From Anthoceros angustus (lineage: Eukaryota > Plantae > Anthocerotophyta), in contig MU008171.1 in NCBI GenBank assembly GCA_010909165.1, forward strand, positions 1,116,001 through 1,180,000: DNA of 64,000 nucleotides. The letters run 5' to 3'. The translations under genes and the position numbers were made by a program. A model generated the notes under the pieces. It was not told where the DNA came from, did no database searches, and saw nothing but the letters and a program-made list of their open reading frames with translations. Of this stretch, positions 6,025 through 38,770 are shown piece after piece. How positions within the stretch are numbered: position 1 is the first letter of the stretch; every line of letters begins with the position of its first letter.

Positions 6025-7043
6025 GGTCAGGAGAGCAAGGCATGACATTTTATTATGGGAGCTCCTCCCCCTCTTATAGGAGCTCCCCCAAACCCTAGCA
6101 TTAATTAAGTATGGTGGGGTAGGTGGGGTTGCTTACGGTTTTTAAGTAGGTGGCCTCTTAAAAGGTTCTTAACCTACCTCCTAACAATCCCACTAACCCC
6201 CTAGGGGTCTTAATGACCCATTCACTCCCCTACCAACTACCTGCCTACTTCTTCTTGGGCGTTGGCATGGCCAGGCGCCCTGCCACCGTCTTCCTCCTCT
6301 TTGCTGGGGGACTGTTCCCCGTCCGGATCTCCTCACTCATCGTCACGACAGGAACCTCCACACTTGTCTCGGCGATCTTGTTGTGATGAAGCTGGGCGCC
6401 CCCTCTTGCAGGCGCTCTTGTAGAGCAGCCTCTGTAACCTGTCTGCCACATTGCAATTACCTCAAGGCGGTTGGGTCTGGTTGCCCCCGGCAGACACCCC
6501 ACCAACCCTACCGGACACCATGCACCCTCACACGGTCACGCGCTTGCGTAGCAAAACAAGCACACCACAGTCGGGAGGCAAGGCATGACATTTTATTATG
6601 GGAGCTCCTCCCCTCTTATAGGAGCTCCCCAAACCCTAGCATTAATTAAGTATGGTGGGGTAGGTGGGGTTGCTTACGGTTTTTAAGTAGGTGGCCTCTT
6701 AAAGGTTCTTAACCTACCTCCTAACAATCCCACTAACCCCTAGGGTCTTAATGACCCATTCACTCCCCTACCAACTACCTACTTCTTCTTGGCGTTGGCA
6801 TGGCGGGCGCCGCCATCTTCCTCCTCTTTTCTTTGGGGGTGTCCCGTCCAGGATCTCTTCACTCGTCGTCACGGCGGGAACCTCCACACTTGTCTCGGCG
6901 ATCTTGTTGTGATGAAGCTGGGCGCCCCCTCTTGCAGGCGCTCTTGTAGAGCAGCCTCTCTGTGTCTGTCACCCTTGTGCAATTACCTCAGGCGGTTGGG
7001 TGTTTGCAGCGCACTCCTGGAGACACCCCACCAACCCTACCGG
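5968..7043. repeat. Tandem duplication of a ~540 bp unit (5968-6513; 6514-7043)
   Basis: Both copies start GACACCATGCACCCTCACACGGTCACG and end CACCCCACCAACCCTACCGG. Differences are largely 1-bp indels in homopolymers. Confidence 0.9.
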
Positions 7044-7213
7044 CTGGAAATCTCCTCCTCTTCCATTGGCTCCTCCCACACTGAGCCTTCCGCATCCATT
7101 TCACTCTCCAGGTCTTGAATCTCCGAAGCTGAGGGTCGCAATTCCTCCAAAATCTCCCTGTCGTCATCGTGGGGACCTAGCAACTTCATTGTCAACAAGG
7201 AACGCATCTCCTT

Positions 7214-8152: not shown

Positions 8153-11100
8153 TCAACAGCTAGTCATCCCCGAGTTCACGCCTTCGTCATCGCTTGGCCC
8201 AGCGTCAACAATATTGTCATCGCTATCCTCTGCGACACTTTGACTGGCTGGCTGTATGAATCCTCGCAATTCGCTCAATTTGTCCCTGATCGCCTTTTTG
8301 TCCACCGCATACAAATGTTTCCGGGCATTCAAAATAAAACCGTAATAAAGGATGACAGTATCATTCACATAGACCGCCTGTATGTTTTTGGGATAAAATA
8401 CCTTATTACCTTTTTTCCCTAGTGCCCGTCCATCTTGGTTACCTCTTCCTCGTAGTATATATTCCTCCACATACCGCCAGAATGCCTCAGATGATCATTG
8501 TCCGATACGGTGGATAAGAAAGTGAGGTTGTGGTGCATCCAACTTCACGTCCGTGACTTTCCCAATCTGAAGCATGCTCTGATGGTACGCTGCTCTTCCT
8601 CCTCAAAGACGGAGAACCATTTCCAAGGACGGTCCGAACAAGGCCGATGTGGTTTTCCAATAAGAATCCCCGTCTACCCAATTCTTCCCACCACTTGTAC
8701 TCTTGGCATAAGGTCGCATTCAAGTAACCCATCCTTCAAATGAGCCACACCTTCCGTTGGTGTCAGTGCCCCTGCGGTTCCTTTTTTATCCCGTGCACGT
8801 AAGGACATCAAAGCCTTCTTTGTTATGGCATCGAGGAACGAAATTTAAGAACTCCAAACCTGCCTCCGTTTCCCAAAGCGGAGATGTTGAATACTGCTTG
8901 CTCGATGATCGTGACTGTGCGCCGTTTGTCCTCCCGCGTAATTTTGAACTGGTGCTGGTATGACAGATTATTCAACTTCTTCACCGGCTACATTCTGCCC
9001 CGCTCAGACATATATATGTCCGGAACTGGAACCTCCACGGAACCTTCACCTGGAGAGGAGTATAGGCCTCCGCAAAATGTGTGCGACGGTAGCGGTGCGC
9101 TTCTTTGTGTTTCGGGCTTTTGGAGAAGCGGAAAACATCAGTCTATTTGGTCATGAGTGTGACCAACCAAGAGAATCCCACCTTCACTTTTTGAGCGTGC
9201 CCATATCAACGAGCATGTTCAGATATGCAAATAATAGCTGATTCTTGTTCTCCCGACATGTATTGTCAAGTTGCAAGTACAAAACTTTGGGCAGTACACC
9301 ATCATAGTTGTGGATGACATCTTGAATGACGTTGATAGTCAAATTGGCATCATTCCGGAGGTTTGCGTAGTGCAAAAACGCTCTGGCTTTGTGGGTGTAG
9401 TTGTGGATCATGCAACCAACCAGTGAACAGAAATGCGACATTCCTCGTCTAGGTTTTTTGGCCACCTCAACATGTGCGGTATCTCTGTCTTCTTCTAGTC
9501 CATGCCATCGATACATAGTAACATATACTTATGTGGTTCCACATAACTCTTGCTCCGGTGTTTTGTCATCTTTGCACGCTCTGCTAGGAGTCGCTCGCGG
9601 TGGGCGTCCAGTGCTGTTTGATATTTCTCTGCACATAACATATTCACAACATAGTTTTTGAGTCCCTTTACAGTTGACAACTTCCAAGATAAAAAACACA
9701 GTATGATGTCCAGCAATCAACGTTGCAAGCATCACCCTGCGGGATGTGCCTATGTCATTGACACCCCCAACTTCTCCTTCCTCAACCCCCTCCCCTCGCC
9801 CTATGATCGACAACAAAGGATATAATGGGCGGAACATATTTGTCAGGCACTTCCGGCGCTCGCGAGGACAGGGGCGCTGGCCAGCCGGCGCTCGCGAGGA
9901 CCTGTCCTTATTCCTGCAACCTCGACAGGGTAATAGCCGTGCCTTCGGCATGGCGAGGCCTAAGGCATGTGATAGGCACATGCATGGGTTACCCGAACGG
10001 GGTGCCGGCCGGCCGGCGCCCTCATGACCAGGGGAACCATCCACACATAATCCTAAGGACATATGGTACGAGACGTATGGTCCGCCCCACCTCAAAGACC
10101 ACATCGAAGCGGGGCATATTGACATAGTAGACATAACAGAATCGCCATTGAGGGTTTGGCCTACGGTCAACCACCCTCGTATCTTTGGAAAACATGGGGA
10201 TAAGGAAAAGAATGTTACTTACCTTGATCAACCTTTGAGATTGTATTTCGTATAGTTGTTTTCAATCCAGCGCAGAGCGAGCAAGTGGAGAATCTGTTGG
10301 ACTTTGGAATCTTTACCCTGTTGAAGTGCCCTTTCCATAGCTTCAAGAACCAGGCGTAAGTCACATACCGCTGTCCTCTTTGTTCACAATGCCGCCTATA
10401 TTCACCCCAAATTTCTAGTTTTGTGTATGTGTCGGGTAGGTTGAAGACCTCGATATTTGGAAGTCTCTCAGCCATGTTCAGGAAAGCATTGTCCATCCAG
10501 GCTATTGCACTTAAGGCATGGTGAGACTGCTGTTTTGGATTGACCTCATGGCATCCCACGGTGCATTCAGTATGACTCTACTCTTCAACTCTTCATATCT
10601 GCTGTGGCCGAGGCAATACACTCTTCTGAAGGCGCGCAAGCAGCATCGGAAAGGATCCGGCCCCAGAAGATGAGTAATAACTTTTGCGTTACCCAGCTCT
10701 TGTCGCACAACCTGTATGAGGGATTCCAAAAATGTTTCCTGCTCCTTGCCTCCCCATCCGTAAATAGCGATACCGTTGTTCACGAAACCTTTCTTTTGTC
10801 AATCTGTGGAGACACATCTGATTGCAACATGCCTTTCCGAAATCAATGTTGATGCTTTCCACTTCACATTTCCTCATTGGGACTCCCGCAGCTTGCCTCT
10901 TTTGGCACTGGACACTCGTAGCTTCTGCAGACACCAAAGTCTCACTCACTGTTTGGGGTGATAAGATGGCGGTCGCCGATCTTCGGGAGTGCTCTGGAAA
11001 TCGTCTGCCTCCTCATTCAGTCTATTGCCGCATTCTTGAGATGCGATGGTGAGTGCGGACTCCACCGCGATGAACAATGCCTCACGCATTCGGAGCCCTT

Positions 11101-13071: not shown

Positions 13072-14440
13072 TAAACCTTACCCTATTTCGTTTTTTATGC
13101 TTTCCGCCTGACTCTGGCCTTTAACAGTGAGCGTTGTTCATTGTGCAAAACACGATATCTTGTGAAGGGGGTGAATATTCACGAAGGGGTTTTCGAAAAT
13201 ATCTCTGAAGGGGTTTGACATGGGTCTTGAACTCGTGGTTTTAGAGGTATGAATGAATATAAGGCGAAAAGAAGGGTGGAAATTCCTTTGAACCGGTGAT
13301 ACAAGGTCCATTTCATGCCGGTGAAGGGGTTATGGTGCAAGAGGTAACCCTATTTGGGGTGCATTTAAGACCCATGACAAGGGCCATTCTTTGGGTCCTT
13401 GGTCTTTCTCGCACAACAACCCTAAAGATTCGTAAAAAGCACGGTGATCAAAATTGGATGAGGCGAACCGATGGCGGGAGCAAAGCATGTCGAGGAGTAG
13501 GGGCGGCCGGCGCCTTCCTCATTGCGATGATGCCTTGCGAAGGCGAGTAGCAGCCCATAGCGGGATGTGTGTACAAAAGACTTTGGGTGTGGGTGGGTGG
13601 GTGGCTTCGCACACCCTCAATTGTGCCCAAATATAATCACATGGTTCGATCCACAGTGCAATCGATGAATGAAGAAAAGTGTGGGCAACGGTTCCCAACA
13701 TATCGCATAGAAAAACATGCCGCATGGCTCATCGTGTGTTGCACTGTTAGTATGCCGCAATGCCGAGCGCAACTACCACCACACTCCCACATGTCCTTCC
13801 GCATGTAATGGAAAAAGGCTTGAACATTGGAAGTTATTAAGCATGGGAAGTCTACAAGGGCACACAGAGAACAGCCACAACCAAATTCCTATCATGGGCC
13901 TAGACTCTTTGAAATATGTCTGCGCTTGGAAATGTGCACTCAAACTACGATTGAGCTTCACGCATAACCTCACCAATTGCCCGTTGAAGATGACCTAACA
14001 TTGAGGGTTTCCTACTCTTCGCGGACTCCACGCCATCATCTTCGTTGGGCACGACATCATGACCATCATCTTCACTATCCTCGGTGGCACTTTGACTCAT
14101 TGGTTGAATAAAGCCTCGCAATTCAATTAAGTTATTCTTGATTGCCTTCTTATCCACAGCGTACAAATGTTTCCGCCGTCAAGTTGAACTCATAATAGAG
14201 GATGACCGTTTGGTGAACAAAAACCTCTACTTACACGACAGTCTATTTCTACGACAGTCTCAAAGTAATGCTATGCTTCACGTTTTGGTGGGTACCTGAA
14301 CATGCCCATATATTCTTCGAGAACGAAGCTGCACATAGTACAGTACGAATGAATGAATGAAAATAGGTCCATAGGTGTTTTTGAAAATGTGTGCAACCAT
14401 GGCATGAGAGGAGTTTCAATATACACATCCATAAAGAAAC

Positions 14441-14556
14441 GGCCGGCCGGCGCCTTCCCAACAAGCCTTGTACATGGGCGCCGGCCGGCGCCTTCTAACA
14501 AGCCTTGTACATGGGCGCCGGCCGGCGCCTTCCCAGCAAGCCTTGTACATGGGCTG
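14441..14556. repeat. 37-38 bp tandem repeat x3 built on the palindrome GGCGCCGGCCGGCGCC
   Basis: The unit is GGCCGGCGCCTTC(C/T)(C)A(A/G)CAAGCCTTGTACATGGGCGCC. A degenerate copy lies at ~16450-16552. Confidence 0.85.
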
Positions 14557-14604
14557 CCATTGATAAAATAAAGAATTAGTGCTTCTCATGTGTTTCAACA
14601 TAGG

Positions 14605-14672
14605 ATAGTTACTCAAGTGGTTTGGAAACAATGTGTGGGTGAGTAGGTCATGGGTTCGAATCCTGTAGAGGC
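14605..14672 (+). promoter_or_regulatory. tRNA-like internal Pol III promoter (A-box/B-box) remnant; second copy at ~16590-16660
   Basis: An A-box-like TACTCAAGTGG (14610-14620) and a perfect B-box GGTTCGAATCC (14653-14663) are 32 nt apart. No convincing acceptor stem or anticodon arm. Confidence 0.35.
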
Positions 14673-17600
14673 ACAAAAAACTTCTTGTTGATTTTATGGG
14701 CGCATGGGCACGGCCATTTAAGGGCGCTAGCATGCCCCTCTATTGAGGCTGACTTGAGGTGTGCAGGATATATTCCACGACGGATCCATGGGTATGAGGT
14801 TTTGCGGATCTTGTGAAGAATTGACATTAGAGGCCCACCGCGGAGGGCTTGCAGTCAGGCAAAGGAGGTGTGTATCAACGAAGGACTCTTTGAAAGCGCG
14901 GTGGTTTCTTTGAATGCTCGTCGGTGAAGACCAAAGCGGGGAGGAGCGAAGACTCAAGGGCTTTGGGCGAGCGATAGCTTTGATGAGCAGGGCTGGGCGG
15001 ATTGAAATTTGGTCATCGTGATGGATTGAGTCCGCTCTAGCACCATGAGTCATGTTAGTCATAGAGAGTAGGTTTACGGTTCAGGCACCTAGATGTGCTT
15101 CTTCTCTGTGTTCGTAATAACTTTTGGACCCGTTGTAGTGAGGCAATTGATGATCTCATTTTCCCCTCTTCCTCAAAAACAAAGCGAAGGCGCCGGCCGG
15201 CCGGCGCCTTCCCTTGGATTTGTTGTCTTTGTGTGTTGGAAACGGGTTTTCATGATAACTACTCGTTGAAAAACAGTCGACCTTTCTTGAAAACGAGGCA
15301 AAACGCATATTTCGGGACTGTGTGGAATGTGCTAAGAGGGTTTCCATGTCACGAAGGGGTTGGATATTCACCCCTTGAAAGATATCGTGTTGCAAGGATC
15401 CGTGATGGGGAATGCATTCATAAGGGCGTTGTGTGCGGAAATCACCCAAGCGATGCGTGCAGAGGAGGTCATGGCGTGGCGCAAGAGCCGAGAAAGTGGA
15501 TGAGGCGAACCGGTGGCGGGAGCAAAGCATGTCGAGGAGTAGGGGCGTGCTGCTCATTGCGATGATGCCTTCTGGCGAGTAGCGAGCCCATAGCGGGATG
15601 TGTGTACAAAAGACTTTGGGTGTGGGTGGGTGGGTGGCCGCACACCCTCAATTGTGCCGCAAATATAATCACATGGTTCGATCCACAGGCGCAATCGATG
15701 AATGAAGAAAAGTGTGGGCAATGGTTCCGCCAACATATCGCATAGAAAAACATGCATGGCTCATCGTGTGTTGCACTGTTAGTATGCCGCAATGCAGCGC
15801 AACTACCACCACACTCCCACATGTCCTTCCGCATGTAATGGAAAAAGGCTTGAACATTGGAAGTTATTAAGCATGGGAAGTCTACAAGGGCACCGGAGAG
15901 CGCCACAACCAAATTCCTATCATGGGCCTAGACTCTTTTCGAAATATGTCTGCGCTTGGAATGTGCACTCCAAACTACGAATTGAGCTTCATAACCTCAC
16001 CAATTGCCGTTGAAGATGACCTAACATTGAGAGGGTTTCCTATTCTTCGCGGACTCCACGCCATCATCTTCGTTGGGCACGACATCATGACCATCATCTT
16101 CACTATCCTCGGTGGCACTTTGACTCATTGGTTGAATAAAGCCTCGCAATTCAATTAAGTTATTCTTGATTGCCTTCTTATCCACAGTACAAATGTTTCC
16201 GTCAAGTTGAACTCATTATAGAGGATGACCGTTTGGTGAACAAAACCTCTACTTACACGACGGTCTATTTCTCTGACGTCTCAAAGTAATGCTATGCTTC
16301 ACGTTTTTTGGGTACTGAACATGCCCATATATTCTTGAGAAGCTGCACATGGTAAATGAATGAATGAATGAAAATAGGTCCATAGGTGTTTTTGAAAATG
16401 TGTGCAACCATGGCATGAGAGGAGTTTCAATATACACATCCATAAAAAGCGCGGCCTCCCCAACAAAACCTTGTACATGGGCGCCGGCCGGCCCTTCTAA
16501 GCCTTGTACATGGGCGCCCCCAGCTTCTAACAAGCCTTGTACATGGGCTGCCATTGATAAAATAGTGCTTCTCATGTGTTTCAACATAGGATAGTTACTC
16601 AAGTGGTTTGGAAACAATGTGTGGGGTGAGTAGGTCATGGGTTCGAATCTGTGAGGCATGAAAAACTTCTTGTTGATTTTATGGGCGCATGGGCACGGCC
16701 ATTTAAGGCGCTAGCATGCCCTCTATTGAGGCGACTTGAGGTGTGCGGATATATTCCACGACGGATCCATGGGTATGAGGTTTTGCGGATCTTGTGAAGA
16801 ATTGACATTAGAGGCCCACCGCGGAGGGCTTGCGCAGGCAAAGGAGGTGTGTATCAACGAGAAGGACTCTTTGAAAGCGCGGTGGTTTCTTTGAATGCTC
16901 GTCGGTGAAGACCAAAGCGGGGAGGAGCGAGACTCAAGGGCTTTGGGCGAGCGATAGCTTTGATGAGCAGGGCTGGAGGCGGATTGAAATTTGGTCATCG
17001 TGATGGATTGAGTCCGCTCTAGCACCGATAGTCCAAGTTAGTCATAGAGAGTAGGTTTCACAGTTACAGTAGGCACCTAGATGTGCTTCTTCTACGTGTT
17101 CGTAATAACTTTTGGACCCGTTGTAGTGAGGCAATTGATGATCTCATTTTCCCTCTTCCTCAAAAACAAAGCGAAGGCGCCGGCCGGCGCCTTCCTTGAT
17201 TTGTTGTCTTTGTGTGTTGGAAACGGGTTTTCATGATAACTACTCGTTGAAAAGCAGTCGACCTTTCTTGAAAGCGAGGCAAAACGCATATTTCGGGATG
17301 TGGAATGTGCTAAGAGGGTTTCCATGTCACGAAGGGGTTGGATATTCACCCCTTGAAAGATATCGTGTTGCAAGGATCTGTGATGGGGAATGCATTCATA
17401 AGGACGTTGTGTGCGGAAATCACCCAAACAGTCGTGCAGCACAGGAGGGTCATGGCGCTGTGGCGCGCAAGAGCCGAGGTGCGGGATGAGGAGGAAGAGA
17501 AGGACAGTGAGAACGAGGAGGGTACTGAGTTTGGCCCGGAGGATGAAGACTATGGCCCGATACCTGATGTCCTCGGACAGTCCGATGAAGAGCATTCAGA

Positions 17601-18184: not shown

Positions 18185-21100
18185 TTGCACATCAACAATC
18201 CCCTTGCTGGTGAAGCCACACGAGGCAGCAACGACTCGAAGGGTTCGACAGAGGAGCCAAGATTCGGGCGGAAAACGGAGGACGCTAAAGTCGATGATCC
18301 AAAGACGGTGGACCATACAGATAAGTCCATGGTAGATTGCCGTGAAAGCGCTTTGGACTATTATTCTTTGTTTATGCGAGACCCATTCGAGTGGGCCAAC
18401 TGGCGGGCTGGAGCCGTGATTTGTGGCGCCTGGAATGAGGTGATCGACAAAGCGGCATGGTTGGCGGTGCGCGAGGAGGCCGACACCAACTTTGACGGAA
18501 TGCCTTATATAGTCTCTCGAAGGGGGAGGGATTGACAGCAATGGTGTTGCTACGGTCAGGCTGGATGAACGAAAGCACACCGAAATCGGAAGCATTCAAC
18601 CCTGTTGCACGACCTCCCTCGGTTCCCAGGACAGGTGGTCAGTTTGAGTGGAGTCACACTCCTATCAGATCCATTGATTTTGAAGAGAGTGGTGGTGGCG
18701 CCAGGATGGAGTATGAACCAGCGCCCAGCAAAAATGATGTGTTCACGGGTAGACACGGTAGTATGTCTCTGGCTGATTTTGAAGAGAAATTTAGGTGGGC
18801 GATCGATGAGATGGTGCTCAAATATAAGTCTGAATTCACGCCTGAGATGGCACTTAGAAAGATGAGCACATTTCTGGCTGGTGAAGCTTTAACTTGCTAT
18901 CGTGATAGTAAAGAAAAGATTTTGCAGGATGCTCATACTTCGCTGCGAATGAAACGGGCAAGGAAAGCTGCCAAGGTCGATGATGACAAACCAGGCTCAT
19001 CGGATTCATCCCAATCTGAGGTTATCACTTATCTGGTGGACGAAATGTTCGTCAAGTTTGCTGAGATGTTTCCAGTGGCGTCCATTGAGAAAATCCAGGA
19101 GTTGTCGAAGTTTGTGATCAAACCAAATGAGCCACTAAGATCTGCGTATCTACGACTGCGGCAGCTGGTGAAAGACACCAAGGTGAAAACCATGAGGGAA
19201 GCAGCGCAAATATATATTGCAGCCTTGCCAGGAAGGCAGAGGAGGGTGATCGCCAACTTTCTGCATATGTTACATGGGGCAGACTATGAGTTGGAGCAGC
19301 CTACGAGATGGCGAGAGTTATGAAAGGAGATCATCACCAATGCCTACTGGGAGGAGCACAATGTGGTCAGAGGACATGCCAGTACTTCGAACACCCATAA
19401 GCAGCATGGGAAGTCCCACTATCGCGAGCACGTGCAGGTGAACACTCAACACAGGGATTCGCCGTCAAAGGACCGAATGGCCCACAGTGCTGTGAGCTCC
19501 AAAACGTCTGACAAGTGTTTAAGATGTAAGGGGCCGCACAAGGCGTATGAGTGTGAGCATCGTGTTGGCGGGTCAAAAGAAAAAGAAGCTTGCAGGGCGT
19601 GTGGTAAAACCGGGCACACGGAAGCTGCTTGCTGGCAAGCCCATCCTGAGCTCAAGCCCAAGGGCCTAGGAGATCGAACAATAGACAAGCAGAAAACGGG
19701 TGTGAGTTACACTCGGAAGGCACTGCTGGGTGAGGTACAGCGGCTGCAAGAGCAGTTGGCCATGAGCGTAAGCATAAAGAAGGACACATGTGCGTCGGCA
19801 GAAACATATGATTCGGACGAAGATGTGTTTGCGTTGATGACGGAAGGGTCAAGTCAGATCAAAAGGGGAAGCATTGATTTCGGTAAGGATGTGAAAGTGA
19901 AGACTGGTGGGGGTAGGAACCAGTTGAGAATGCCCAAATCCTTCAGACAGATTCAGGACGAGGACGGCACCACACATCAGGAGGAGGTAGCTCCGAATGC
20001 AGAAATTCTGTTAGAAAAAGCCATGGATGCACCCTTGGTAAGTTTGCGTGACCTGGGAATTCGGGCACAACCGTTCAGACAAGCAATGCGGGCCTGGATT
20101 AAGAAGGAAGCCATTGAATTGAGCACGGTGTTTGGGCTTGTCAGCCTACGTGGTGACCATCTAAAACCAGCAGCCAGGGGGAAAGGTGGCATAGCATTGG
20201 TGAAGAACCAAGAACGAGAGGTCACTGTCAATGGCTTTGCACCGGAGTGTGTGCTAGTAGACAGTGCGGATCCGGTCTTGCCAGAACGGGTGCAAGAGGC
20301 GCTTCAACTGTATGGAGACAAGTTGAAGCCATGTGAGGTACGGATCACTACATCTGCAGGTACCAAAGAACAGGTGATGGGGATGACTCGCGATCCGATG
20401 CGGATAGAGTATAAGCGAGCAATGACGCATGTGGTGGAAGTGCACATGCAGTTTCGGATGCGAAATTATGATGTGTTGTTAGGAGCGGATGCCACGCATG
20501 GACCAGCCATGGGGGTGGATCCGCTGCACTCTGTGGCATTCTATAGGCCAAGATGGCGAGATGGAGATTTCACACATGTTGCCAGAATTCCTCTGGACAT
20601 GAGGAGGCATGGTGAAAGATCAAGAAGTATGCTGGCATTCACGGCGTGCGCAGCCGAAAGTGTTCACCGAGAGGAGGTGTGGGAAGAGACACAGGACCTG
20701 GCACGTCATGAGGTGTCGGAAGAAGGCACCACATCGAATGACATGTATGTGAGCTGTACACCACCCGTGAAGGAAGCTTTGGAAAGAGAGCGTGTTCGAC
20801 AGCAACAGATGCAAGTATGGCAAATCACCGGCAATTGCCCGGAAAGAAGTCTGCCCAAGCGAGCGATCGTAGGAGAGTCGGAGCTACGGATCGGTAACCA
20901 AGTGATTCAATGGCGTGCTCATGAACAAGGAATTCACCTCATGGAGTTGTGTTCAGGAATTAGTAGCGGGCTGGAGTGTGTTTCTACGATGTGGGATTCG
21001 GATACGGAAGTATACGTGTGTAGAGATTGATGAGAAGACTCGGGCGGTGGCCAAATCCAGGATTATCAAGCTACAAAAGATGTATCCGAGCTTGCTGAGC

Positions 21101-21192
21101 ATGGAAGCCGTAAGAGGGTGCCAGACCAGACTTCCCACTGATGTGATGTTGGTAGGAAAAGGGAATAATAGAAAGGATAGGTGATGTAGACT
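18185..21192 (+). mobile_element. Ty3/gypsy-like retrotransposon polyprotein: gag, 2 zinc knuckles, aspartic protease and N-terminal C5 DNA methyltransferase; 3'-truncated and frameshifted
   Basis: Gag core VFTGRHGSMSLADFEEKF...FLAGEALTCY...KPNEPLRSAYLRLRQL (18532-19323). CCHC knuckles CLRCKGPHKAYEC and CRACGKTGHTEAAC. Protease-like CVLVDS(G)AD...YDVLLGAD. MTase motifs start at 20929 (GIHLMELCSGISSGLECV|LRCGIRIRKYTCVEIDEKTRAVAK). No RT, RNase H or integrase follows. Confidence 0.8.
20929..21192 (+). pseudogene. C5 cytosine DNA methyltransferase domain fragment (motifs I-III), fused to the retrotransposon polyprotein
   Basis: Removing one T from TTT at 20981-20983 gives IHLMELCSGISSGLECVLRCGIRIRKYTCVEIDEKTRAVAKSRIIKLQKMYPSLLSMEAVRGCQTRLPTDVMLVG. 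One more shift at ~21160 gives GIIERIGDVD. This matches motif I (ELxSGI, the FxGxG equivalent), motif II (VEID) and motif III (LPxDV). The sequence breaks just before the expected motif IV (PCQ). Confidence 0.75.
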
Positions 21193-21559
21193 GACATCCT
21201 TTAAGGATGATCTTAGGTGAAGTTGCTAGAATAGAATTTACCAAGGACCAGACAGTAGACTTAGATGCAAGGTCTTAAATGCTGGCGGTAGGAAATAATA
21301 GAATATTGGAAAAGGTGACCTGTAGTAGGGTCACCCGAGGGAGGTTGTATGTGGAAGGCCTCCTATAACAAGAGGAGGATTTCACAAAATAAAGTATCAT
21401 GTCTTGCGCTTCCATACTCGCGAGTCCTTTGCCATTACAGAGGAATTTCGTGGTACCGTGAGCCAAGCGGGTAGAGAGGAAGTCGCGGTGGTCGAGTGCT
21501 TGGTGGAGGACTTGCTCGCAAGTGCCTAAACGAGTTGCTCCCCTTGTGAATGGTTGCCG

Positions 21560-22230
21560 TGAAATTGCTTTGCTTTGGGTGTGTGGCAATGCCCGTGGAA
21601 CTTGAGGGTAGACTACGGGAAAGACTCACAGGAGGTTCTCGCTGGGTGTCAAACTCATAGCAACCGCCCAAGGAAGAACTTCTTGGTGGAGGCCGACCCA
21701 GGCGGTTGTCTTGGGAAGGCAAGTCGAAGCCGATAAGCCAGGCGAGGTTAGAATAGGAGGAAGAGGATGAGGAGATGAGTAGAGGAATAGAGTGTAGGCG
21801 TTAGTGGAAGGCCACAGGCAGAGCCTAAGGGACGAATCCCAAATCTGCAAGTAAAAGGGCGCTCCCTGAGTGGAGAAGAGTGGTCTTAGAAGTAGGGACG
21901 AAATTGCGGTGTGGATCAGGGGGTCCCTGGGCGCCCGTGATAGGCTCCTCGCTGCTAAGGCAGGACCTGCAATTGTGTTGTGTCGTTGTAGGTCGGGATT
22001 GGTAGTTTTCTGAGCAAGGCAAGTGCACCGCTGAAGAGGGTGAGTAGAGGGCGCCTTACTCATTTAGAAGGCTGAGAAGGTGTGTCTCTGCAGGTAGCGA
22101 TCGGTTATCACAAGACCTCGAATTTTCACACAAGTCTCATGGGACGAAACCCAACGCGTCTGCGGCATAAGGGATAAGTGTACTGCTAGAGTGGGAGGAT
22201 CTCGGGAGCCCCGGGGTTTTCCCTACCACA
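21560..22230 (-). mobile_element. Diverged relative of the 4999-6024 LTR-like element, in opposite orientation
   Basis: The minus strand starts TGTGGTAGGGAAAACCCCGGGG...CACTTATCCC...TGGGTTTCGTCCCA, versus TGTGGTGGGAGGTTCCCGGG...CACTTATCCC...TGGGTTTCGTTCCA at 4999. Both share a CGCAATT...CTAAGACC block followed by a CT-rich tract. The inner boundary is uncertain. Confidence 0.45.
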
Positions 22231-23395: not shown

Positions 23396-23700
23396 ATGGA
23401 TGCCTGTACCCCTTGTACTGACGGAATAAATCCGTCATGTCACAGGTCCTCAACTTATAGTATATGGCCAGTTCTACTCATAATCCACAATATACCTCCA
23501 GGGGTGGGGACTAAGCGGCATCGGATTCTCATGCCTATAGGGTATTATGATAGCTATCATAATACCCGGCCCGAAACAGATTGGCAACATGGATAGTTTT
23601 TTGGATCCTTTGCCGGAAGAGCTCAGCATTCTGTGGAATGGAACCCCGATGGTTGATCACTCCAAGGCGGTTGGGCACTTTGACTGTGTTTTCAAACCGC
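23396..23700 (+). pseudogene. CACTA/En-Spm transposase (Transposase_21/Tnp2) fragment
   Basis: CTDGINPSCHRSSTYSIWPVLLIIHNIPP and, after a frameshift, IIPGPKQIGNMDSFLDPLPEELSILWNG match the Tnp2 motifs TDGxNP...SxWPVxL...NLPP and IPGP...D..L.PL.EEL..LW. Confidence 0.85.
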
Positions 23701-23869
23701 AGCAACAGTCTGTTCAAGATGTCATCGAGGAGATGAATGCATATGCCATATATGGCTGTCAACCAGGCAATGCAGACGGTCATGTATGTGGCGTACTGCC
23801 TCCTCCGCTTCCTGCCACTCCGTCGGCAGAGGCAAGGGCACGGGCGCGGTCCTGGGCGCTGCGTTGGTA

Positions 23870-25215
23870 GGTGCTACCTTCCGCCTCTTCGGTTCCCTTC
23901 GGGTCCGCCGGGGCTCAACAGCTAGCGTCGTTGTTGGTGGCGACCTCTGAGTTGCAACCACCGCCTCGCCCCTGGTCGCCTCTTCTGCCTTGGTTGCTGA
24001 AGGGGCACCAGGAGGAGAGAAGCGGGAATGTCCTCCCACACTTCCCTGGGTGGCGAGGGGGTCCGTTCCAGACGTATGGAGTCTGGAATCCCCTCCCAGT
24101 CGTCCTCCTCCCGGACGCGCTTGCTCCGGACCGGACGGGCCTCAACCTCCTGCGCTCTTCCTCTCTCTCCGCCTCTGGTAGGGCGGCCAACCCTTTCCGT
24201 AGTGCCCGCTCCTCTTCCCCCTCCTTCAGGAGGTTCATGTGCCCCCACACATGAATGAGGAACGGCGACAATGTTGAGGGGGATGGCTTCTCGCTTCTCA
24301 GCTTTCGGGCCTCCTGGTTGATCCGGCGAAGATTATCCTGCCCCAGTCGGGGCGTTTCCCCTTCTGTAGTGAAGAACACTAACAGATTATCCCCAAGGTG
24401 GTCCAATGGAGAACGCATGCTTAACTTCACTGTACATGTGCGTGTGGAAATAGGAGAGATCAGGGCCTACCTACTACAAGTGAGGACCAAGTTGGCCGCG
24501 GCTACTCCCGCCGCCTCCCTCCACTGGTTCTGATCCCGCCGGTAGTGGTCTCTGCGTCTTGGCAGGCTCGCCTCCACGCCCTTCACTGGCCTCCCAAGCT
24601 TGGTCTTTGTTCACTAGGCGATCTCGGCCAGGTCCTTGGCCCTCTCTGCCTGCCTTCTTGCCTCCTCTACCTCTTCTTGGGCCGCTCCTCTCCGCCTACA
24701 AAGGTCCTTCGCCTTTGCTTGTGCCTCTGCAGCTTGTTTGTTCATCATTTGGAGCACTAACTATCTTGTTAGGCGGACTGGCCTCAGTTCGGCCGGGCGC
24801 TTCTCCTCCTCGACTCTAGCGAGGGTCTCCGCCTTTCTCTTGGCGGCTTGGGCCGCCTCCGCCTGGCCTTGAAGCTCCACCATTCGTCTTCTGGTGGCCT
24901 CCACTTCCTGGGCCTTCTGTGCCGTTCCGCAGAGACCCCAAAGCACTCCGTCCATGACGGCTGCGAGCACCCTCCTGGTCTCTTCCACGGCCGCCGCTGG
25001 GGAGATCCCCGTGAAGTCCGCCGCGGGCTCGGGTACCGCTCGATGCAGGACGCCCGGACCCTGATCCGGAGGCGGACTAGGGACTCGGACATTAGGACCC
25101 TCGGTCCAGTGTTGGCCGAGGCTTCCACCTCCTTAGCCCTCTCTGCTGCCTTCTTGCCTCCTCGCTTGCCTCCTCACTTGCCTCCTCGCTTGCCTCCTCA
25201 CTTCGCCACTCCGTC
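23870..25215 (-). pseudogene. Transposon-associated ORF with charged coiled-coil-like repeats; family unassigned
   Basis: Broken frames read MEETRRVLAAVMDGVLWGLCGTAQKAQEVEATRRRMVELQGQAEAAQAAKRKAETLARVEEE and KPSPSTLSPFLIHVWGHMNLLKEGEEERALRKG. This ORF is the template for the array at 27-30.5 kb. Confidence 0.35.
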
Positions 25216-25388
25216 AGCGTCGGCCTCGATTCCGCAAGAGAAACCCTTCGTTATTACGACGGCGGGAAAGCACTCGCCAGGCGAGGTGCACAGCAGTGGC
25301 CGCTTCTGGCCGGCCGAAGAAATAGCCTTCTCCCTCTTGCGAGGCTCGTGAAATGGCAAAACACGGAGGCGCGCCCCTTTCGCTGCTC

Positions 25389-28300
25389 GAGTCTGCATTG
25401 CTTACTCTAGCTTTACGCGCCCTTCGCTTGCTACTCTAGCCTTACTGCGCGCATGTGCGAGGCGTGGTTGCCGACCATCCAGGCAACCCTACGGTCTGGT
25501 GGGATGCCTCCCCCTCTCGGCCACGTCACGTGGCGCCTTGAAATCGCTCCAGTTACCTTTCTGGTGTCTTGTTGCGACTTACTGGGGTCTCACCTCACTG
25601 CGGTCTACTCCAGTGCGGTCCGTAGTCCTCAGCCGCCCGGAGCAGTCCGAGTCACCGCTACTCGGGTCGGTCAAGATCCCCCCATAGGCGCTTGGGGTCG
25701 ATCGTCTTCTTGCATCCGGTCTTATTTCCTTCTCGTCATTTCTCACTCCACTAACATAGCTCATTACCTTTCTAAGGGGAGAGCCTACGGTCCACATTGC
25801 CTTCGCAATATCGATATTCAGCTGAGTATAAAAGGGCACTGGCATGCTATAGATGGAAATTGCAGTTTATTCTTGTGTGAGGGCAATCCACGAATTACAA
25901 CGGACCAAAAGCAGCTATCTTCGGTTAACACTAATTTAACGGACATGCTTGCATGATCTTTGGGGGCGGGATGGGGATGTGCTCTTGCCTCCCCATCTTC
26001 TCGCATCGTTCGGACCAAGCGAAGTAAACAAACAATTGCAACAATGGAGCCTAGACCACATGGCCATTTGGATTACTCATATCACATGATGTCACTTCAT
26101 CGTGGACTCTTGATATGCACGTTTGCTAGTTGAGAGCTATGGACACTCGCGATGGCCAACTTCGGTCATTCCATAAATGTCTGAGCCTCATTAGAAGCGG
26201 GTTCGGGCTCCTCTTAGGGATGGGCTCGGGCATATTGGATAGGATTGTCAATGAGCCTAAATAACAAATTCGGGTCAAAATTTATAAACATTGTCTGGTC
26301 AACTGGTGCTCTCGTCAAAGCATACTCGTGATGTGTGTCAATATTCACCGGCCTCATTCTTGCACGTGGGCTACTTTCAGAGCGTCCTTAGCCGTGGCTT
26401 GAGTCTGCATTGCTTACTCTAGCTACGCGCCGCGCGCGTACTCTAGCCTTACTCGCGCATGTACGGGCGTGGTTGACCACGGGCAACCCCTCGGTCTGGT
26501 CGCCTCTTCCCCTCTCGGCCGTCACGTGGCGCCTTGCCAAAATCGCTCCCGTTCCAAAGTTACCTTTCTGGCGTACTTATTGCGACTTACTGGGGTCTCA
26601 CCTCACTGCGGTCTACTCCAGTGCGGTCCGTAGTCCTCGAGGCCGCTCGGGACCTCCACGGTCCATCTCCAGGGTCCTCCCTCAAGCTTTTGGGCGGACC
26701 GTTTGTTGGCCACCGCCAACATCTTCCGAGCGCTCGCTCCTCTCCGCCTACAAAGGTCCTTCGCCTTTGCTTGTGCCTCTGCGCGTGCTTCAATTTATTT
26801 GGAGCACTAACTTCTGTCTTGTTGGGCGGACTGGCCTCAGTTCCAGCGCTCTCCTCCTCGACTCTAGCGAGGGTCTCTGCCTTTCTCTTGGCTGCTTGGG
26901 CCGCCTCTGCCTGGCCCTGAAGCTCCACCATTCGTCTTCTGGTGGCCTCCACTTCCTGGGCCTTCTCTGCCGTTCCGCAGAGACCCCAAAGCACTCCGTC
27001 CATGACGGCTGCGAGCACCCTCCGTGTCTCTTCCACGGCCGCCGCTGGGGAGATACCCGTGAAGTCCGCCACGGGCTCGGTACCGCGATGCAAGGACCGC
27101 CCGGACCCTTGATCGGAGGAGGCCGGACTAGGGACTCGGACATTGGGACCCTCGAGTCACAGGTGTTGGCAGGCTTCCACCTCCTTAGCCTCTTCCTAAC
27201 TCCTTCTCCGCCTTCTCTTGGGGTCCGGGAGGTGGTGAGGTCGGGAGGTGGCTCGCTTACCCCTCTGGTTGGTGGCAGGGCCAGGCTCGGGGTGGGGTTG
27301 CTTCAGTGTCCCCGCTCACTGGGCCGCATCTCGCCGCCCTCCTCACTTGCCTCCTCCGGCCAAGGCTCAAAGTCCAGTATCGCTTGGTAGCGATGTTCCT
27401 CTCCACCATTCGTCTTGGTGGCCTCCACTTCCTGGGCCTTCTCTGCCGATCCGCGAGACCCCAAAGCACTGTCCATGACGGCCGAGCACCCTCCGTGTCT
27501 CTTCCACGGCCCGTTAGGGAGATACCCATGAAGTCCGCCACGGGCTCGGGGTGGGGTTGCTTCATGTCCCCGCTCACTGGGCGCATCTCGCCGCCTCCTC
27601 CTCGACTCTAGCGAGGGTCTCCGCCTTCTCTTGGGGTCCGGGAGGTGGTGAGGTCGGAGGCGCTCCCCTCCGTTGGTGGCAGAGGCCTGGGTGGGGTTGC
27701 TTCATGTCCCCGCTCACTGGGCCGCATCTCGCCGCCTCCTCACTTGCCTCCTCGCTTCCCGCCACTCGTCGGCAGGCGGGGGCCGAGGCATCACAGGGGC
27801 ATGGTGGTGGGCCGTCTTCCTCTTCTTTACCTCCCGTCTGCGGGGTTCGGTGTGGCGTCGTAGGTTCTTGGCTTAGCATGACCACCGGCTCCTCCTGGCT
27901 CCTTCGGCGTGGGGTGCTCGGTGGAGGGACTAAGAGGAGGAGGCGGGAATTTCTTCCCATATTCCCGGGGCGGGGGGTCCGTTCGATCTTATGGAGTCCG
28001 AATCCCTCCCAATCCTCATCGTCCTGGACCCTTTGGTCTTGGGGGCGCCTCCGCCTACAAAGGTCCTTCGCCTTTGCTTGTGCCTCAAGAGCGCCGCCCT
28101 TGCCGCCTCCACCTTCCTTTCACCTTAAGGGGCTCGGGACTACACCCCAATCTCCTCCGGCCAAGGCTCAAAGTCCAGTATCGCTTGGTAGCGATGTTCC
28201 TCTCCACGAGCGCTAGGGTTCCCGGACCTCCGCGCCTTCTTGGTGGCCTCCACTTCCTGGGCCTTCTCTGCCGATCCGCGAGACCCCAAAGCACTGTCCA

Positions 28301-31300
28301 TGACGGCCGAGCACCCTCCGTGTCTCTTCCACGGCCCGTTAGGGAGATACCCATGAAGTCCGCCACGGGCTCGGGGTGGGGTTGCTTCATGTCCCCGCTC
28401 ACTGGGCGCATCTCGCCGCCCTCCTCACTTGCCTCCTCTACCTCTTCTTGGGCCGCCTCTCCGCCTACAAAGGTCCTTCGCCTTTGCTTGTGCCTCAAGG
28501 TTTTCACTGCTCATACAGGAGCACTTAGCTCTGCCTTGTTGGGCGGACTGGCCTCGATTCGGCCCGCTTCTCCTCCTCGACTCTAGCGAGGGTCTCCGCC
28601 TTCTTGGGTCCCATAATTACGTGCCTCTCGGTCTGCTGTGGCTTGATGATCGACAACTCTCGCACTCGTCGCGCCGCAGCCGATTCGCGAAGAGGCCGCT
28701 CGTTATTACGCCCGGGGAAAGATAGCGCCAGAGCGAGGTGCTGCGCGGTGACGCAAAAGCGCATGGCCGGTCGAGAATGGCCTTCTCTCGGTGCTCTCCT
28801 TCTCCGCCCGCCTTCTTGGTGGCCTCCACTTCCTGGGCCTTCTCTGCCGATCCGCGAGACCCCAAAGCACTGTCCATGACGGCCGAGCACCCTCCGTGTC
28901 TCTTCCACGGCCCGTTAGGGAGATACCCATGAAGTCCGCCACGGGCTCGGGGTGGGGTTGCTTCATGTCCCCGCTCACTGGGCGCATCTCGCCGCCTCCT
29001 CACTTGCCTCCTCTACCTCTTCTTTACCTCCCGTCTGCGGGGTTCGGTGTGGCGTCGTAGGTTCTTGGCTTAGCATGACCACCGGCTCCTCCTGGCTCCT
29101 TCGGTGGGGTGCTCCGGTGGAGGGACTAAGAGGAGGGAAGCGGGAATTTCTTCCCATATTCCCGGGGCGGCGAGGGGGTCCGTTCCAGTCTTATGGAGTC
29201 CGGAATCCCCTCCCAATCCTCATCGTCCTGGACCCGCCTGGTCTTGGGGGGGCGGCCCTCCGTCTCCGGTGCTCTCCCTTCTCGCTCCGCCTCGGGTAGG
29301 GCCACCAACCCCTTCCGGAGCGCTCGCTCCTCCTCTCCCTCCTTCAGGAGGTTAAGGTGCCCCCACACGTGAATGATAAACGGCGATAGCGTGGGGCGCT
29401 TCTCCTCCTCGACTCTAGCGAGGGTCTCCGCCTTCTTGGGTCCCATAATTACGTGCCTCTCGGTGCTCTCCTTCTCGCCGCCTTCTTGGTGGCCTCCACT
29501 TCCTGGGCCTTCTCTGCCGATCCGCAGAGACCCCAAAGCACTGTCCATGACGGCCGAGCACCCTCCGTGTCTCTTCCACGGCCCGTTAGGGAGATACCCA
29601 TGAAGTCCGCCACGGGCTCGGGGTGGGGTTGCTTCATGTCCCCGCTCACTGGGCGCATCTCGCCGCCTCCTCACTTGCCTCCTCCGGCCAAGGCTCAAAG
29701 TCCGTATCGCTTGGTAGCGATGTTCCTCTCCACCATTCGTCTTGGTGGCCTCCACTTCCTGGGCCTTCTGCCGATCCGCAGAGACCCCAAAGCACTGTCC
29801 ATGACGGCCGAGCACCCTCCGTGTCTCTTCCACGGCCCGTTAGGGAGATACCCATGAAGTCCGCCACGGGCTCGGGGTGGGGTTGCTTCATGTCCCCGCT
29901 CACTGGGCCGCATCTCGCCGCCTCCTCACTTGCCTCCTCCGGCCAAGGCTCAAAGTCCGTATCGCTTGGTAGCGATGTTCCTCTCCACGAGCGCTAGGGT
30001 TCCCGGACCTCCGCGCCTTCTTGGTGGCCTCCACTTCCTGGGCCTTCTGCCGATCCGCAGAGACCCCAAAGCACTGTCCATGACGGCCGAGCACCCTCCG
30101 TGTCTCTTCCACGGCCCGTTAGGGAGATACCCATGAAGTCCGCCACGGGCTCGGGGTGGGGTTGCTTCATGTCCCCGCTCACTGGGCGCATCTCGCCGCC
30201 TCCTCACTTGCCTCCTCCGGCCAAGGCTCAAAGTCCGTATCGCTTGGTAGCGATGTTCCTCTCCACCATTCGTCTTGGTGGCCTCCACTTCCTGGGCCTT
30301 CTGCCGATCCAGAGACCCCAAAGCACTGTCCATGACGGCCGAGCACCCTCCGTGTCTCTTCCACGGCCCGTTAGGGAGATACCCATGAAGTCCGCCACGG
30401 GCTCGGGGTGGGGTTGCTTCATGTCCCCGCTCACTGGGCGCATCTCGCCGCCTCCTCACTTGCCTCCTCCGGCCAAGGCTCAAAGTCCGTATCGCTTGGT
30501 AGCGATGTTCCTCTCCACGAGCGCTAGGGTTCCCACCTCCGCGCCTTCTTGGGTCCCATAATTACGTGCCTCGGTGCTGTGGCTTGATGATCGACAACTC
30601 CTTGCACTCGTCGTCGAACGCCGATTCGCGAAGAGGCCATCGTTATGCACTTGGGCGCGGAAAGATAGCGCCAGAGCGAGGTGCTGGCGCGGTGGCGCAA
30701 AAGCGCTGGCCGGTCGAGAATGGCCTTCTCGGTGCGACGTCGTGAGTAACGGCCGGAGGCGTGCCCTTCCGTGCTGTAGTCCTGCATTGCTTACTCTAGC
30801 TTTACGCTGCCGCCGCCGCTTGCGTACTCTAGCCTTACTCTGGCGCATGTACGGGCGTGGTTACGACCGCGTACGGCAACCCTCGGTCTGGTCATGCATC
30901 TGTCCCCTCTCGGCCGTCACGTGGCGCCCCTTGCCAAAATACGCTCCCCGTTCCAAAGTTACCTTTCCTGGCGTACTTATTGCGACTTACTCCGGAGTGC
31001 AGTCTGGACTCACTGCGGTCTACTCCAGAGTGCGGTCCGTAGTCCCTCAGGCCGCTCGGGCGTCGTCACCTCTACTCGAGTGGTCCGAATCCTCCCATCT
31101 AGGCGCCCGATCGTCCCTTCTTCATCCGGTCTTATTTCCTTTTTCTCGTCTTATTTCTCACTCCACACTAACAAAAAAAAAAATAGCTCATTACCTTTCT
31201 AAGGGGGAGAGCCTACGGTCCACATTGCCTTCGCAATATCGATATTCAGCTGAGTATAAAAGGGCACACAACGCTGTGCTATAGATGGAAATTGCCAGTT

Positions 31301-31860
31301 TTATTGCTGTTGTGAGGGCAATCCACTGAATTACAACCGGACCAAAAACGACGCTATCTTTCAGTGTTAACACCTAATTTAACCGGACATGCTTGCATGA
31401 TGCTGGGCCGGGATGGGGATGTGCTCTTGCCTCCCACATCTTCTCGCATCGTTCGGACCAAACGAAGTAGACACAAACAAGCAATTGCAACAATGGAGCC
31501 TAGACCACATGGCCATAGCTGGATTACTCATATCACATGATGTCACTTCATCGTCCGTGGACTCTTGATATCGCACGTTTGCTAGTTGAGAGCTATGGAC
31601 ACTCGCGATGGCCAACTCGGTCATTCCCATAAATGTCTCTGGAGCCTCATTGAAGAGAACTGGCTGGGACTCGGGCTCCTCTTCCGGGATGGGCTCGGGC
31701 ATATTGGATAGGATTGTCAATGAGCCTAAATAACAAATTCAGTCAAAATTTATAAACATTGTCTGGTCAACACAATTGCCTCTCGTCAAACTGATACTCG
31801 TGATGTGTGTCAATATTCAACTGACCTCATTGCACGTGGGCTACTTGCTCTGGAACGTCC
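25389..31860. repeat. Dispersed ~1 kb direct repeat (25389-26398 and ~30778-31860) with a partial third copy at 26400-26640
   Basis: The copies share GT(C)CTGCATTGCTTACTCTAGCTTTACGC through TTGCACGTGGGCTACTT. A minus-strand frame at 31379-31720 (MTILSNMPEPIPEE...) has a broken counterpart in the first copy. Confidence 0.85.
27240..30560. repeat. GC-rich tandem and mosaic array; core unit ~256/279 bp interspersed with shuffled modules
   Basis: The core GGTGGCCTCCACTTCCTGGGCC occurs at ~24893, 26941, 27417, 28242, 28818, 29488, 29744, 30023 and 30278. The last four are spaced about 256, 279 and 256 bp; the longer unit carries an extra GAGCGCTAGGGTTCCCGGACCTCCGCG module. Confidence 0.9.
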
Positions 31861-32386: not shown

Positions 32387-33510
32387 TTAATGAAAATTCA
32401 ATAGATGGCATGGAGTATCGTGAGTCGGCCATAGCCGGGTTAGTAATGTCTTTGTACTCGGAGCGAAGGACATAACAATATGAAAACTAAAGGGACACAA
32501 CCGCTTGTTCCTACCATATCTATATGGTTTATTGGTGTCCACGCTCTTGAATCCGCTGAAATCATCATACTCGGTGGGCTGGTTGTAGTGGAGCACTAAA
32601 ACCAATGGATGTTGAAGATGAACGTCGATAGGCCCCCCACATCAAATTTGGCATCGAGGGTGTCTTTGATTTTCCCAAAATACTGGGACTCGCCTTCTCC
32701 CAGGCCAAACTTCCCACTGACCCAATAATCTTGGGTGGCACTACGCATTGCATCTTCTGTCATTGTTTGGTAGTGAAAGCCTCTGGTGTCCAACCCGCGG
32801 TACGTGTTCAGGGTTAACTTCGGATCACTAATGATGCTGCATATGTCATTGTAATCCGGCAGGTGCTGCCATCGGCCTTCCCGAACACCTGCATGGAGCC
32901 AATCCAATACTTCAAAGTATCTGTTAGGATGATTGGTCCGAATCGCCTGCATTGCTTCTGCATGGTCAAGAAAGTGCCAGTGCAGTCTGGTATGTTTGTC
33001 ATGGTCCAGTGTCCAGGGCGTAGCTTTACCGATTGGCTCCTCAGACTTTCAGTCGTAGTATCCAAAATTAAAAAGCTCGGCATGCTCTGCTTCAACACAT
33101 GCATGTCCCTTTCCATGGGGTCCATCCATCTAGCATGGACGATGCCATGACTTTCGACCTCATCTACCAAATGAACAATTAGATGTTGCATTGGATTCCA
33201 AATGCATGATGGGAAGTGCTTTTCGAGGTTGATCATGATGTCCACCACTTTGCCTTTCCATCTCGAGATATCTATAACATCAATTGATTTCTTGCAAATC
33301 GAGCGGTACAAGCCACTAAGTGCCACAAAGGCATTGTACTCTTTCCCCTCTAATCGACCTCGGAGCGCTATGGGCAGGAAGTACTGCATAAGGAGATGCT
33401 AGTCGTGCGATTTCAGACCTGTCACTTTCAGCCCAGTAAAGCATGTATGCAAGTTTGATCCAAACCCGGTTGGGGGCCTGATCCGGGATAACTCAAGCTT
33501 AACAGCTTCC
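32387..33510 (-). pseudogene. CACTA transposase C-terminal half (DUF4218 and DUF4216 regions)
   Basis: RIRPPTGFGSNLHTCFTGLKVTGLKSHD*HLLMQYFLPIALRG...LEKHFPSCIWNPMQHLIVHLVDEVESHGIVHARWMDPMERDMHVLK and SQYFGKIKDTLDAKFDVGGLSTFIFNIHWF. Contains stops and frameshifts. Confidence 0.88.
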
Positions 33511-37809: not shown

Positions 37810-38770
37810 CTAAGCTCCTGGAGCAGCACGGCTGCCTGCAACCGCGCCGGGTCCTGGCAAAAGAGGCTCTCGTTGTGCAGCAGAGGCAGCCCGAGATCTG
37901 CGGCCTGATGAGGAAACCATGGTGTTAGTGCCTGATCAATCGATGAGAAGACTTTCGCAAGTGTCAGAGCTTTGCAATAGGAGCTACCAAAGCTCACCTA
38001 AGTAGGCCATGGACGCGATCAACAGCATGGATAGCCCGGACACAAGCAAGTCGGATCCGAACACAATTCCTATCAGCACGAGTCCGTACGTCGGCGCAAG
38101 AGCCAAAATGGTGAAAGCAAGGATGATGGACAGTAGCCCGCTGACCAAAACGGCCGGCCAGGAGCTCATTTGCCGCACTTGGCATGCCATGAGCAGCTTC
38201 AACACTCCCTGTGAGCACACGCACGCAAATTATTGCCGGTCTCACGTTGCGGTCTCATCGACAAACTGCTCACAAACAATCCAAGAGAAAGGAGATGTGA
38301 CAAACATGAGCTAGAAACCACCCGGCGAGAACGAAGAGGAGCATCGTCCCGCCTGCGATCGGCTGAAGGAGCATCCATATGCCGACACCGAGATGAAGAA
38401 ATCCGAGAAGCAAGAATGAAGTAGTTCCCGGCGCGCCGCAGACAAGCAGGAAGTGAAGAAGCGAAACCGCGCCACTGAGAACCAGCAGCCATGCTATGAG
38501 CTGCTCCACAGCCAAAGCAAAGACGATGGGGAACACGATGCCGACAACTCCGACGGCCACGAAAATGGCTCCGAAGATGGTGTAGTAGAGTGCCAGCCTC
38601 TCCAAGTGCTCCTCTTCCACATCCGAGGTGAGCGCTCTGATCGGGATATTGATGTAATACGTCTGCCTTTCCTCGGGAGGCACACCGGCGGGGACATCTG
38701 CTGCCTGCGTCGGGGACGCCGTGCCCGCCCCATAGCCGGACTGATAGTAGCCTTCCTCCTTGGCTGCCAT
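37810..38770 (-). CDS. HdeD/DUF308-family multi-pass membrane protein, 3 exons, 256 aa
   Basis: Exons 38770-38306, 38208-37998 and 37904-37810 (GT-AG, phases 0 and 1) give 771 nt in frame. The core IFGAIFVAVGVVGIVFPIVFALAVEQLIAWLLVLSGAV...LGVGIWMLLQPIAGG...LAGWFLAHGVLKLL...WPAVLVSGLLSIILA...IGIVFGSDLLVSGLSML follows the duplicated DUF308 helix-pair pattern of E. coli HdeD. Confidence 0.8.

Follow-up and report, generated by a model that had tools for sequence, protein, structure and literature searches.

The 64,000-nucleotide stretch of contig MU008171.1 analysed here (the window) carries, between 18.7 and 21.2 kb on the + strand, a gag region with two zinc knuckles, an aspartic protease, a linker and the N-terminal part of a DNMT3-type C5 DNA methyltransferase (DNMT). 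Judged by its sequence, this copy is truncated and belongs to a new subfamily of Gypsy retrotransposons that carry a DNMT3, in a probable land plant. That the stretch is a fragment of a Gypsy gag-protease-DNMT3 element we hold with high confidence, and we consider a truncated Gypsy element, with a Gag-protease frame running into a DNMT3-type methyltransferase, a likely explanation of the evidence as a whole. In one clade of relatives a single stop codon separates the DNMT from the reverse transcriptase (RT) in a context resembling a viral readthrough signal; this layout appears to be a new observation, known from that clade.

Three-frame translation of the window recovered, in place and on the + strand, every part of the polyprotein named by the original prediction, which had been made from the DNA letters alone. 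The gag core (18706..19320) gave the only Pfam match of the three main window pieces, a weak one to Retrotrans_gag (E 0.02), while the related protein P0124 aligns to the gag region over 18706-19818 with 43% identity (E 3e-83). Two zinc knuckles follow (19516..19632), a pair common to P0124 and P0125: the first, at 19516-19554, reads CX2CX3HX4C with the spacing of both these proteins, and the second, at 19591-19632, reads CX2CX4HX4C. The aspartic protease (20179..20610, Asp at 20260) is 56% identical to that of P0124 and 46% to that of P0125 (51% for P0124 when relatives were mapped onto the window). No stop interrupts the linker (20611..20907) that leads from the protease to methyltransferase motif I, and the open reading frame (ORF) P0001, open from 19324 to 21027, spans the protease through that motif. 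The protease Asp and motif I are 228 amino acids apart in the window; of seven relatives compared, six have 218-286 here and the remaining one has 423. The methyltransferase piece itself (20908..21191), about the N-terminal quarter of the domain, extends from motif I at 20944 to the start of motif IV, with frame breaks near 20980 and 21155.

Two claims about this copy stood in part. Its damage had been described as 1-bp indels alone; frame breaks are indeed present, but the protease also lacks whole codons, including the Gly of D-[ST]-G, and an in-frame TGA at 19321, the single nonsense codon, lies at the end of a short disturbed stretch (19300..19323, +) where the likeness to P0124 drops out and the frame is the same on either side. 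Likewise, the element had been started at 18185; the gag region holds from 18706 onward, while 18185..18705 (+) contains open stretches, possibly the gag N-terminus, without a homologue among the 86 related proteins searched. The gag with zinc knuckles followed by an aspartic protease is the arrangement of Ty3/Gypsy elements and, although pol is absent from the window, the copy can be assigned to Gypsy, as predicted, because its gag, protease and DNMT are homologous to those of relatives whose RT has Ty3 as its closest match among solved structures.

The methyltransferase was identified with a profile of 340 positions built from the DNMT domains of 26 relatives (27 were tried, one lacking the motif). 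Against the 1940 six-frame ORFs of the window, two matched (E 3e-16 and 7e-4; next best E 2.3), and both belong to the element. Adding the third piece extended the match to positions 3-88 of the profile, where the IGDVD of the window aligns with the LGEVD/LGHVD found directly before motif IV in relatives. The alignment to P0125 takes in the knuckles, the protease, the linker and motif I within a single frame (19507-21021); the methyltransferase piece that follows aligns in a different frame (20960-21160, E 2e-11). Motif I opens the domain at its N-terminus, an unpermuted order unlike that of DRM, and the catalytic Cys (motif IV), ENV (VI) and RxR (VIII), retained by the relatives, are lacking from the window copy. 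Since the profile match is accompanied by an Asp-to-motif-I spacing like that of the relatives, the methyltransferase is, on these alignments, an integral part of the element. Weighing against this assignment, PF00145, the Pfam profile proposed as a check, found nothing on the separate window pieces; it also misses the relatives P0125 and P0127, and most of its matches on relatives start at profile position 38 or later, a stretch largely absent from the window copy. The proposed protease check failed similarly, with no Pfam match on the separate pieces, while relatives of the window protease match Asp_protease_2. In the ESM Atlas, P0002 returned adenine/N4 methylase clusters only (0.88-0.90), a loose Rossmann-fold lead that we rejected as a type assignment. 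The 90-residue window piece has no supported placement in the DNMT tree.

Relatives were collected by searching P0001 against 1.84 billion representatives (41 proteins at E up to 0.001), by a second query with the protease-DNMT part of P0145 (23 proteins) and by a metagenome scan, which gave 40 loci, many of them copies or re-assemblies of one family at ~90% identity. A word-indexed search for long relatives of P0001 returned none, the window had no DNA-level match to the 40 metagenome loci, and viral contigs gave six weak phage methylase matches with query A2 and none with P0125. The closest relatives that reach motif I, P0125 and P0127, read from protease to motif I without a change of frame. 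In P0193, one ORF of 2300 amino acids encodes protease, DNMT, RT, RNase H and integrase, followed by a PHD finger; the longer metagenome loci repeat this domain order, and the full order of the family is gag-protease-DNMT3-RT-RNase H-integrase-PHD. P0166, the Marchantia polymorpha protein PTQ33208.1, presents protease, DNMT, RT and RNase H. The window copy groups with P0124-P0127 as its own subfamily, outside the Marchantia-containing clade. One metagenome locus, L036:440-8755, is GC-rich and has two same-frame ORFs (975 and 1795 amino acids), and its contig ends repeat over 127 bases.

The best sequence matches of the relatives' DNMT are DNMT3C/A/B (E 5.5e-10 to 4e-8), with DRM-type enzymes at 2e-4 or weaker. 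For the DNMT domain of the metagenome locus L008, a fold predicted from 34 rows reached a pLDDT (predicted local confidence) of 95.8, and the ten top-ranking PDB structures that match it are all DNMT3A/B/C. A fold prediction from one sequence alone gave a pLDDT of 33.5. The motifs run I-IV-VI-VIII-IX-X, again unpermuted, GWPCQ is kept in all six domains examined, ENV and RxRxxW are also kept, and the ratio of nonsynonymous to synonymous change (dN/dS) of 0.10-0.13 in three pairs indicates purifying selection. From sequence matches and predicted fold together, the methyltransferase of the relatives is of DNMT3 type, which bears out the original C5 claim and sharpens it to an unpermuted DNMT3.

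A second layout, RT-RNase H-DNMT3-integrase-PHD, was seen in 12 of 16 proteins scanned (10 with PF00145), drawn from P0168-P0186, P0197, P0201 and P0203. It includes Cz02g39130 of Chromochloris zofingiensis, which also has a G-patch, and a Haematococcus lacustris protein, so that related Gypsy elements, chlorophytes included, hold the DNMT at two positions. Our literature search found no paper on this layout with the DNMT after RNase H.

Turning to the DNMT-RT junction, 15 of the 20 loci examined keep one frame (five are frameshifted), and 14 of these 15 have a stop at the matching place. In L008, a single internal stop interrupts 2418 codons. Contexts of the stop are TAG CAG TTA (L008, L011), TAG CAA TCA (L016), TAG CAA CCA (L002) and, in decayed form, TAG TAG CCA (L018). 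Of 11,155 codon starts in these elements, 26 begin a CARYYA. The second codon after the stop varies between Leu, Ser and Pro yet stays YYA, and the compared elements are near synonymous saturation (dS, synonymous divergence, 1.4-1.9); because YYA stays despite the amino acid changes and nearly saturated synonymous sites, the pattern points to a constraint on the nucleotides themselves. Tobacco mosaic virus (TMV) has UAG-CAR-YYA as its type I readthrough signal, which works with UAA too (PMC3542737, PMC2754532). With that system the relatives share a single in-frame amber followed by CAR-YYA and no need for a stable 3' structure; no stable RNA structure was found 3' of the stop in relatives (z -1.5 to 0). 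The position of the stop is different from the gag/pol type or the pol/env type of Tca2, SIRE1 and murine leukaemia virus (PMC2194720), since here it follows Gag, protease and DNMT. In the RT tree, the elements with the stop make up a single clade together with Marchantia P0166 (SH-aLRT branch support 100, fast search). Missing from the P0166 gene model are the ~310 bases in which its nearest relatives have the stop, as if they were a predicted intron; P0145, P0165 and P0133 end after the DNMT. Taken together, we infer that the stop after the DNMT is read through in these relatives. Gag-protease-DNMT would then be the abundant product and RT-RNase H-integrase-PHD a minor one, at a few percent, and the DNMT would be present at Gag level because the stop lies after it.

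Several observations weigh against this reading and its extension to the window. L036 has no stop after the DNMT and carries one (TAG GGG TGC) before it instead. In the largest family, TAG or TAA (16 and 8 cases) is followed by CAA CCC in 24 of 40 loci matching an anchor, equivalent to at most 17 distinct copies; CAA CCC is not CAR YYA, and an in-frame ATG stands two codons later. P0193 has no stop between DNMT and RT. The junction site is absent from the window copy, whose subfamily lies outside the stop-bearing clade, and the full-length layout is taken from relatives outside that subfamily. We therefore give about even chances to the use of a stop after the DNMT in the window's subfamily, and only slightly less than even to an alternative by which the subfamily's product is an unbroken polyprotein, or its regulation lies elsewhere, with a DNMT that is not at Gag level relative to RT. 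The single ORF of P0193 favours this alternative, as does the grouping of the window with P0124-P0127 apart from the stop-bearing clade; moreover, the authors of the Klebsormidium nitens element KnitGypsy-Dnmt3 assign its DNMT to the ORF that also encodes RT and RNase H (PMC5890265, peer-review file), in contrast to the stop of the clade described here. On the other side, P0133, also outside the stop-bearing clade, ends right after the DNMT. The layout of L036 is excluded for the window, which has no stop before the DNMT.

Mechanistically, a Gag-protease frame that runs stop-free into DNMT3 would yield one polyprotein. Gypsy polyproteins assemble the particle and are cut by their own protease, so the protease would release the DNMT inside the particle, beside the complementary DNA (cDNA). 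There, the enzyme would methylate the new element cDNA de novo before integration, and insertion, guided by the PHD finger, would follow. We regard methylation of the cDNA before integration as evenly balanced between true and false. The hypothesis in its fullest form, a land-plant Gypsy lineage that uses TMV-type readthrough to build particles with DNMT3 at capsid stoichiometry and delivers pre-methylated DNA to PHD-chosen chromatin, the window representing a further subfamily in another early-diverging plant, is tentative and, taken whole, rather unlikely. Three points count against cDNA methylation. For the window copy, any methylating activity, as suggested in the original prediction, is unsupported: it lacks motifs IV-X, RT and integrase. 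The ratio of observed to expected CpG in the element is 0.72-0.78, similar to its neighbourhood. Finally, the Klebsormidium DNMT showed no activity in yeast, the only published test, whose result its authors call inconclusive (PMC5890265). The last two points also favour a role other than on cDNA, such as binding DNA or RNA, methylating host chromatin or the site of insertion, or holding the element itself in check, several of which are listed by the same authors; we see such a role as a real but lesser possibility. The catalytic motifs kept in the relatives and their dN/dS of about 0.1 speak against it, as do the position of the enzyme in a particle-forming polyprotein, which brings it to the cDNA, and the de novo CG methylation shown for the DNMT3s borne by DIRS elements (PMC5890265).

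The window copy ends at 21191, just before the catalytic motif, and at 21192 an LTR-like segment (LTR, long terminal repeat) of another family begins. This segment (21192..22230, +, 1039 bp) runs from TG to CA, contains TATA-like and AATAAA motifs, and was recognized by its likeness to a second unit at 4999-7194 (-): the two have a common start and promoter-like and end motifs, with local scores of 58 and 64 against shuffle maxima of 35 and 26. Both units are diverged, and that at 4999-7194 has a ~550 bp internal tandem duplication and an AG-rich tract. Around 21192-22230 no target-site duplication was found, nor a TGG after the segment. Searches by tBLASTn with 21 long relatives gave nothing better than E 0.078 outside 18.7-21.2 kb of the window, and therefore the RT, RNase H and integrase, present in that order in relatives, are absent from it. 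The paired LTRs proposed for the element itself are missing too: no repeat pair flanks the copy in the window, whereas direct repeats of 342 and 307 bp surround the coding region in L026 and L007. We rejected 21192-22230 as the element's own 3' LTR, its likeness to the DNA upstream of gag amounting to one 10-mer, and also a simple nested insertion, because the flanks of the segment differ and no DNMT remainder lies 3' of 22230. These features would fit a loss of the copy's 3' half in which an LTR element inserted and recombination or deletion came afterwards.

Six duplicated pairs in the window differ by 238 indel events against 118 substitutions. An excess of indels over substitutions is a pattern of unpolished long-read assemblies, and the small indels of the window copy may thus be assembly errors, which suggests that frameshifts in elements of this genome should not be taken as a sign of age without reads. 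Carried further, the copy would be young and its element intact in the plant, with lesions that are unpolished long-read errors and possibly a misjoin at 21192. The lesions agree with this in being frame changes and missing codons with one TGA, although 69 codons (counted on stretches cut at breaks) are one deamination from a stop. Nevertheless, we judge it unlikely: the junction coincides with the very TG at which an LTR-like unit begins, and the window has another unit of that family, as an insertion would give, and a nearby host gene is open for 467 codons. Rfam gave no match over 12-32 kb of the window.

The host was assessed from the GPR107/CAND7-like receptor gene (39651-41054, -). All named proteins among its best 120 matches are from land plants, in line with the original view of the flanking genes, the best being Selaginella (64%), followed by Diphasiastrum, Riccia and Marchantia (62-63%). 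A quick tree of 39 rows, with no algal and no named hornwort row, placed the gene at 39.6-41.0 kb next to the liverworts (support 81) and apart from mosses, ferns and seed plants. The host is thus probably an early-diverging land plant, an early liverwort or hornwort being likeliest and a lycophyte less likely. Were it a streptophyte alga, the window would extend nothing into land plants; the tree lacks an algal outgroup and places the gene near its base, with liverworts at only 81, but the land-plant identity of the named matches makes an algal host improbable.

Lastly, that the methyltransferase-like stretch inserted separately (for example, as part of a DNMT3 gene of the host) or resembles such an enzyme by chance can be dismissed despite the lack of a PF00145 match on the pieces and the presence of a quarter of the domain only, as the same protease-DNMT junction and spacing recur in independent relatives (P0125, P0127, P0145, P0166, P0193 and metagenome loci), no stop or intron intervenes between protease and motif I, and the methyltransferase read through its break with an X reaches 88.5 bits, whereas none of 1000 shuffles exceeds 3.4.

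Elsewhere in the window, host genes encode a DUF7899 protein (873-1475, -), a DUF308 membrane protein (38273-38779, -), a protein kinase (46168-47246, +) and a cyclophilin (48823-49680, +). Directly upstream of the element, 13451-17491 is a ~2 kb tandem duplication with 92% identity and a weaker third piece near 8160-8359; the ORFs tested in it had no Pfam match. A Transposase_21 fragment (E 1.5e-5) at 23541-23867 (+) and a DUF4218 fragment (E 3.7e-13) at 32817-33398 (-), which we take to be typical of CACTA-type DNA transposons, flank a nest of GC-rich repeats of 250-1100 bp at 24000-31850.

De Mendoza et al. 2018 (PMC5890265) describe Gypsy-Dnmt3 in Klebsormidium only, and Marchantia is absent from the text and searched supplements of that paper. 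The kinship with KnitGypsy-Dnmt3 put forward originally is sound in kind: both present the Gypsy domain set with an intronless, unpermuted DNMT3-type domain inside the polyprotein and under purifying selection, while no Klebsormidium sequence appeared among the matches of our protein searches. The differences are the host, here probably a land plant, the ordinary two-LTR ends of L026 and L007 compared to the DIRS-like repeats reported for KnitGypsy-Dnmt3, and a C-terminal PHD finger in our relatives, a term not found in the text of PMC5890265. Marchantia MARPO_0091s0058 (PTQ33208.1, 'hypothetical protein, partial') has the same protease-DNMT-RT-RNase H order and about 33% identity to the window DNMT piece but belongs to a different subfamily, its protease being 26% identical to that of the window; it is a retrotransposon annotated as a host gene, and no paper naming it was found in our literature search. 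EpiLTRs/DAM-LTRs (bioRxiv 10.64898/2026.05.21.726589) are also LTR elements with a DNA methyltransferase and a chromatin reader. Their DNMT, however, is sister to DNMT4 and accompanied by DAM and a chromodomain, and the preprint separates them from streptophyte Gypsy-DNMT3; our relatives match neither the DAM nor the chromodomain family and have a DNMT3-type enzyme and PHD instead. That preprint and PMC12344493 say 'streptophytes', citing PMC5890265; the supplements of these two citing works may list land plants. Our search, covering few subscription journals, found no paper on land-plant Gypsy elements with a DNMT, nor any on a readthrough stop that follows the DNMT of a retrotransposon, and such elements and readthrough go unmentioned in the available portions of PMC10952607, PMC6453930, PMC9033089, PMC6317226 and PMC11982613.

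Why retrotransposons carry an enzyme that normally silences them has been a question since 2018. The window copy itself is a fragment unable to methylate; the question can be tested on intact elements such as L008 and on its relatives in Marchantia, a model plant that can be transformed. A stop after the DNMT predicts particles in which DNMT greatly outnumbers RT or integrase, as would be expected if the whole cDNA is the substrate; with DNMT expected at capsid-level amounts, the readthrough layout, if used, would therefore single this enzyme out from RT and integrase. The same stop would explain why gene callers end or splice these proteins there, and DNMT3 counts in bryophyte genomes include copies of such elements.

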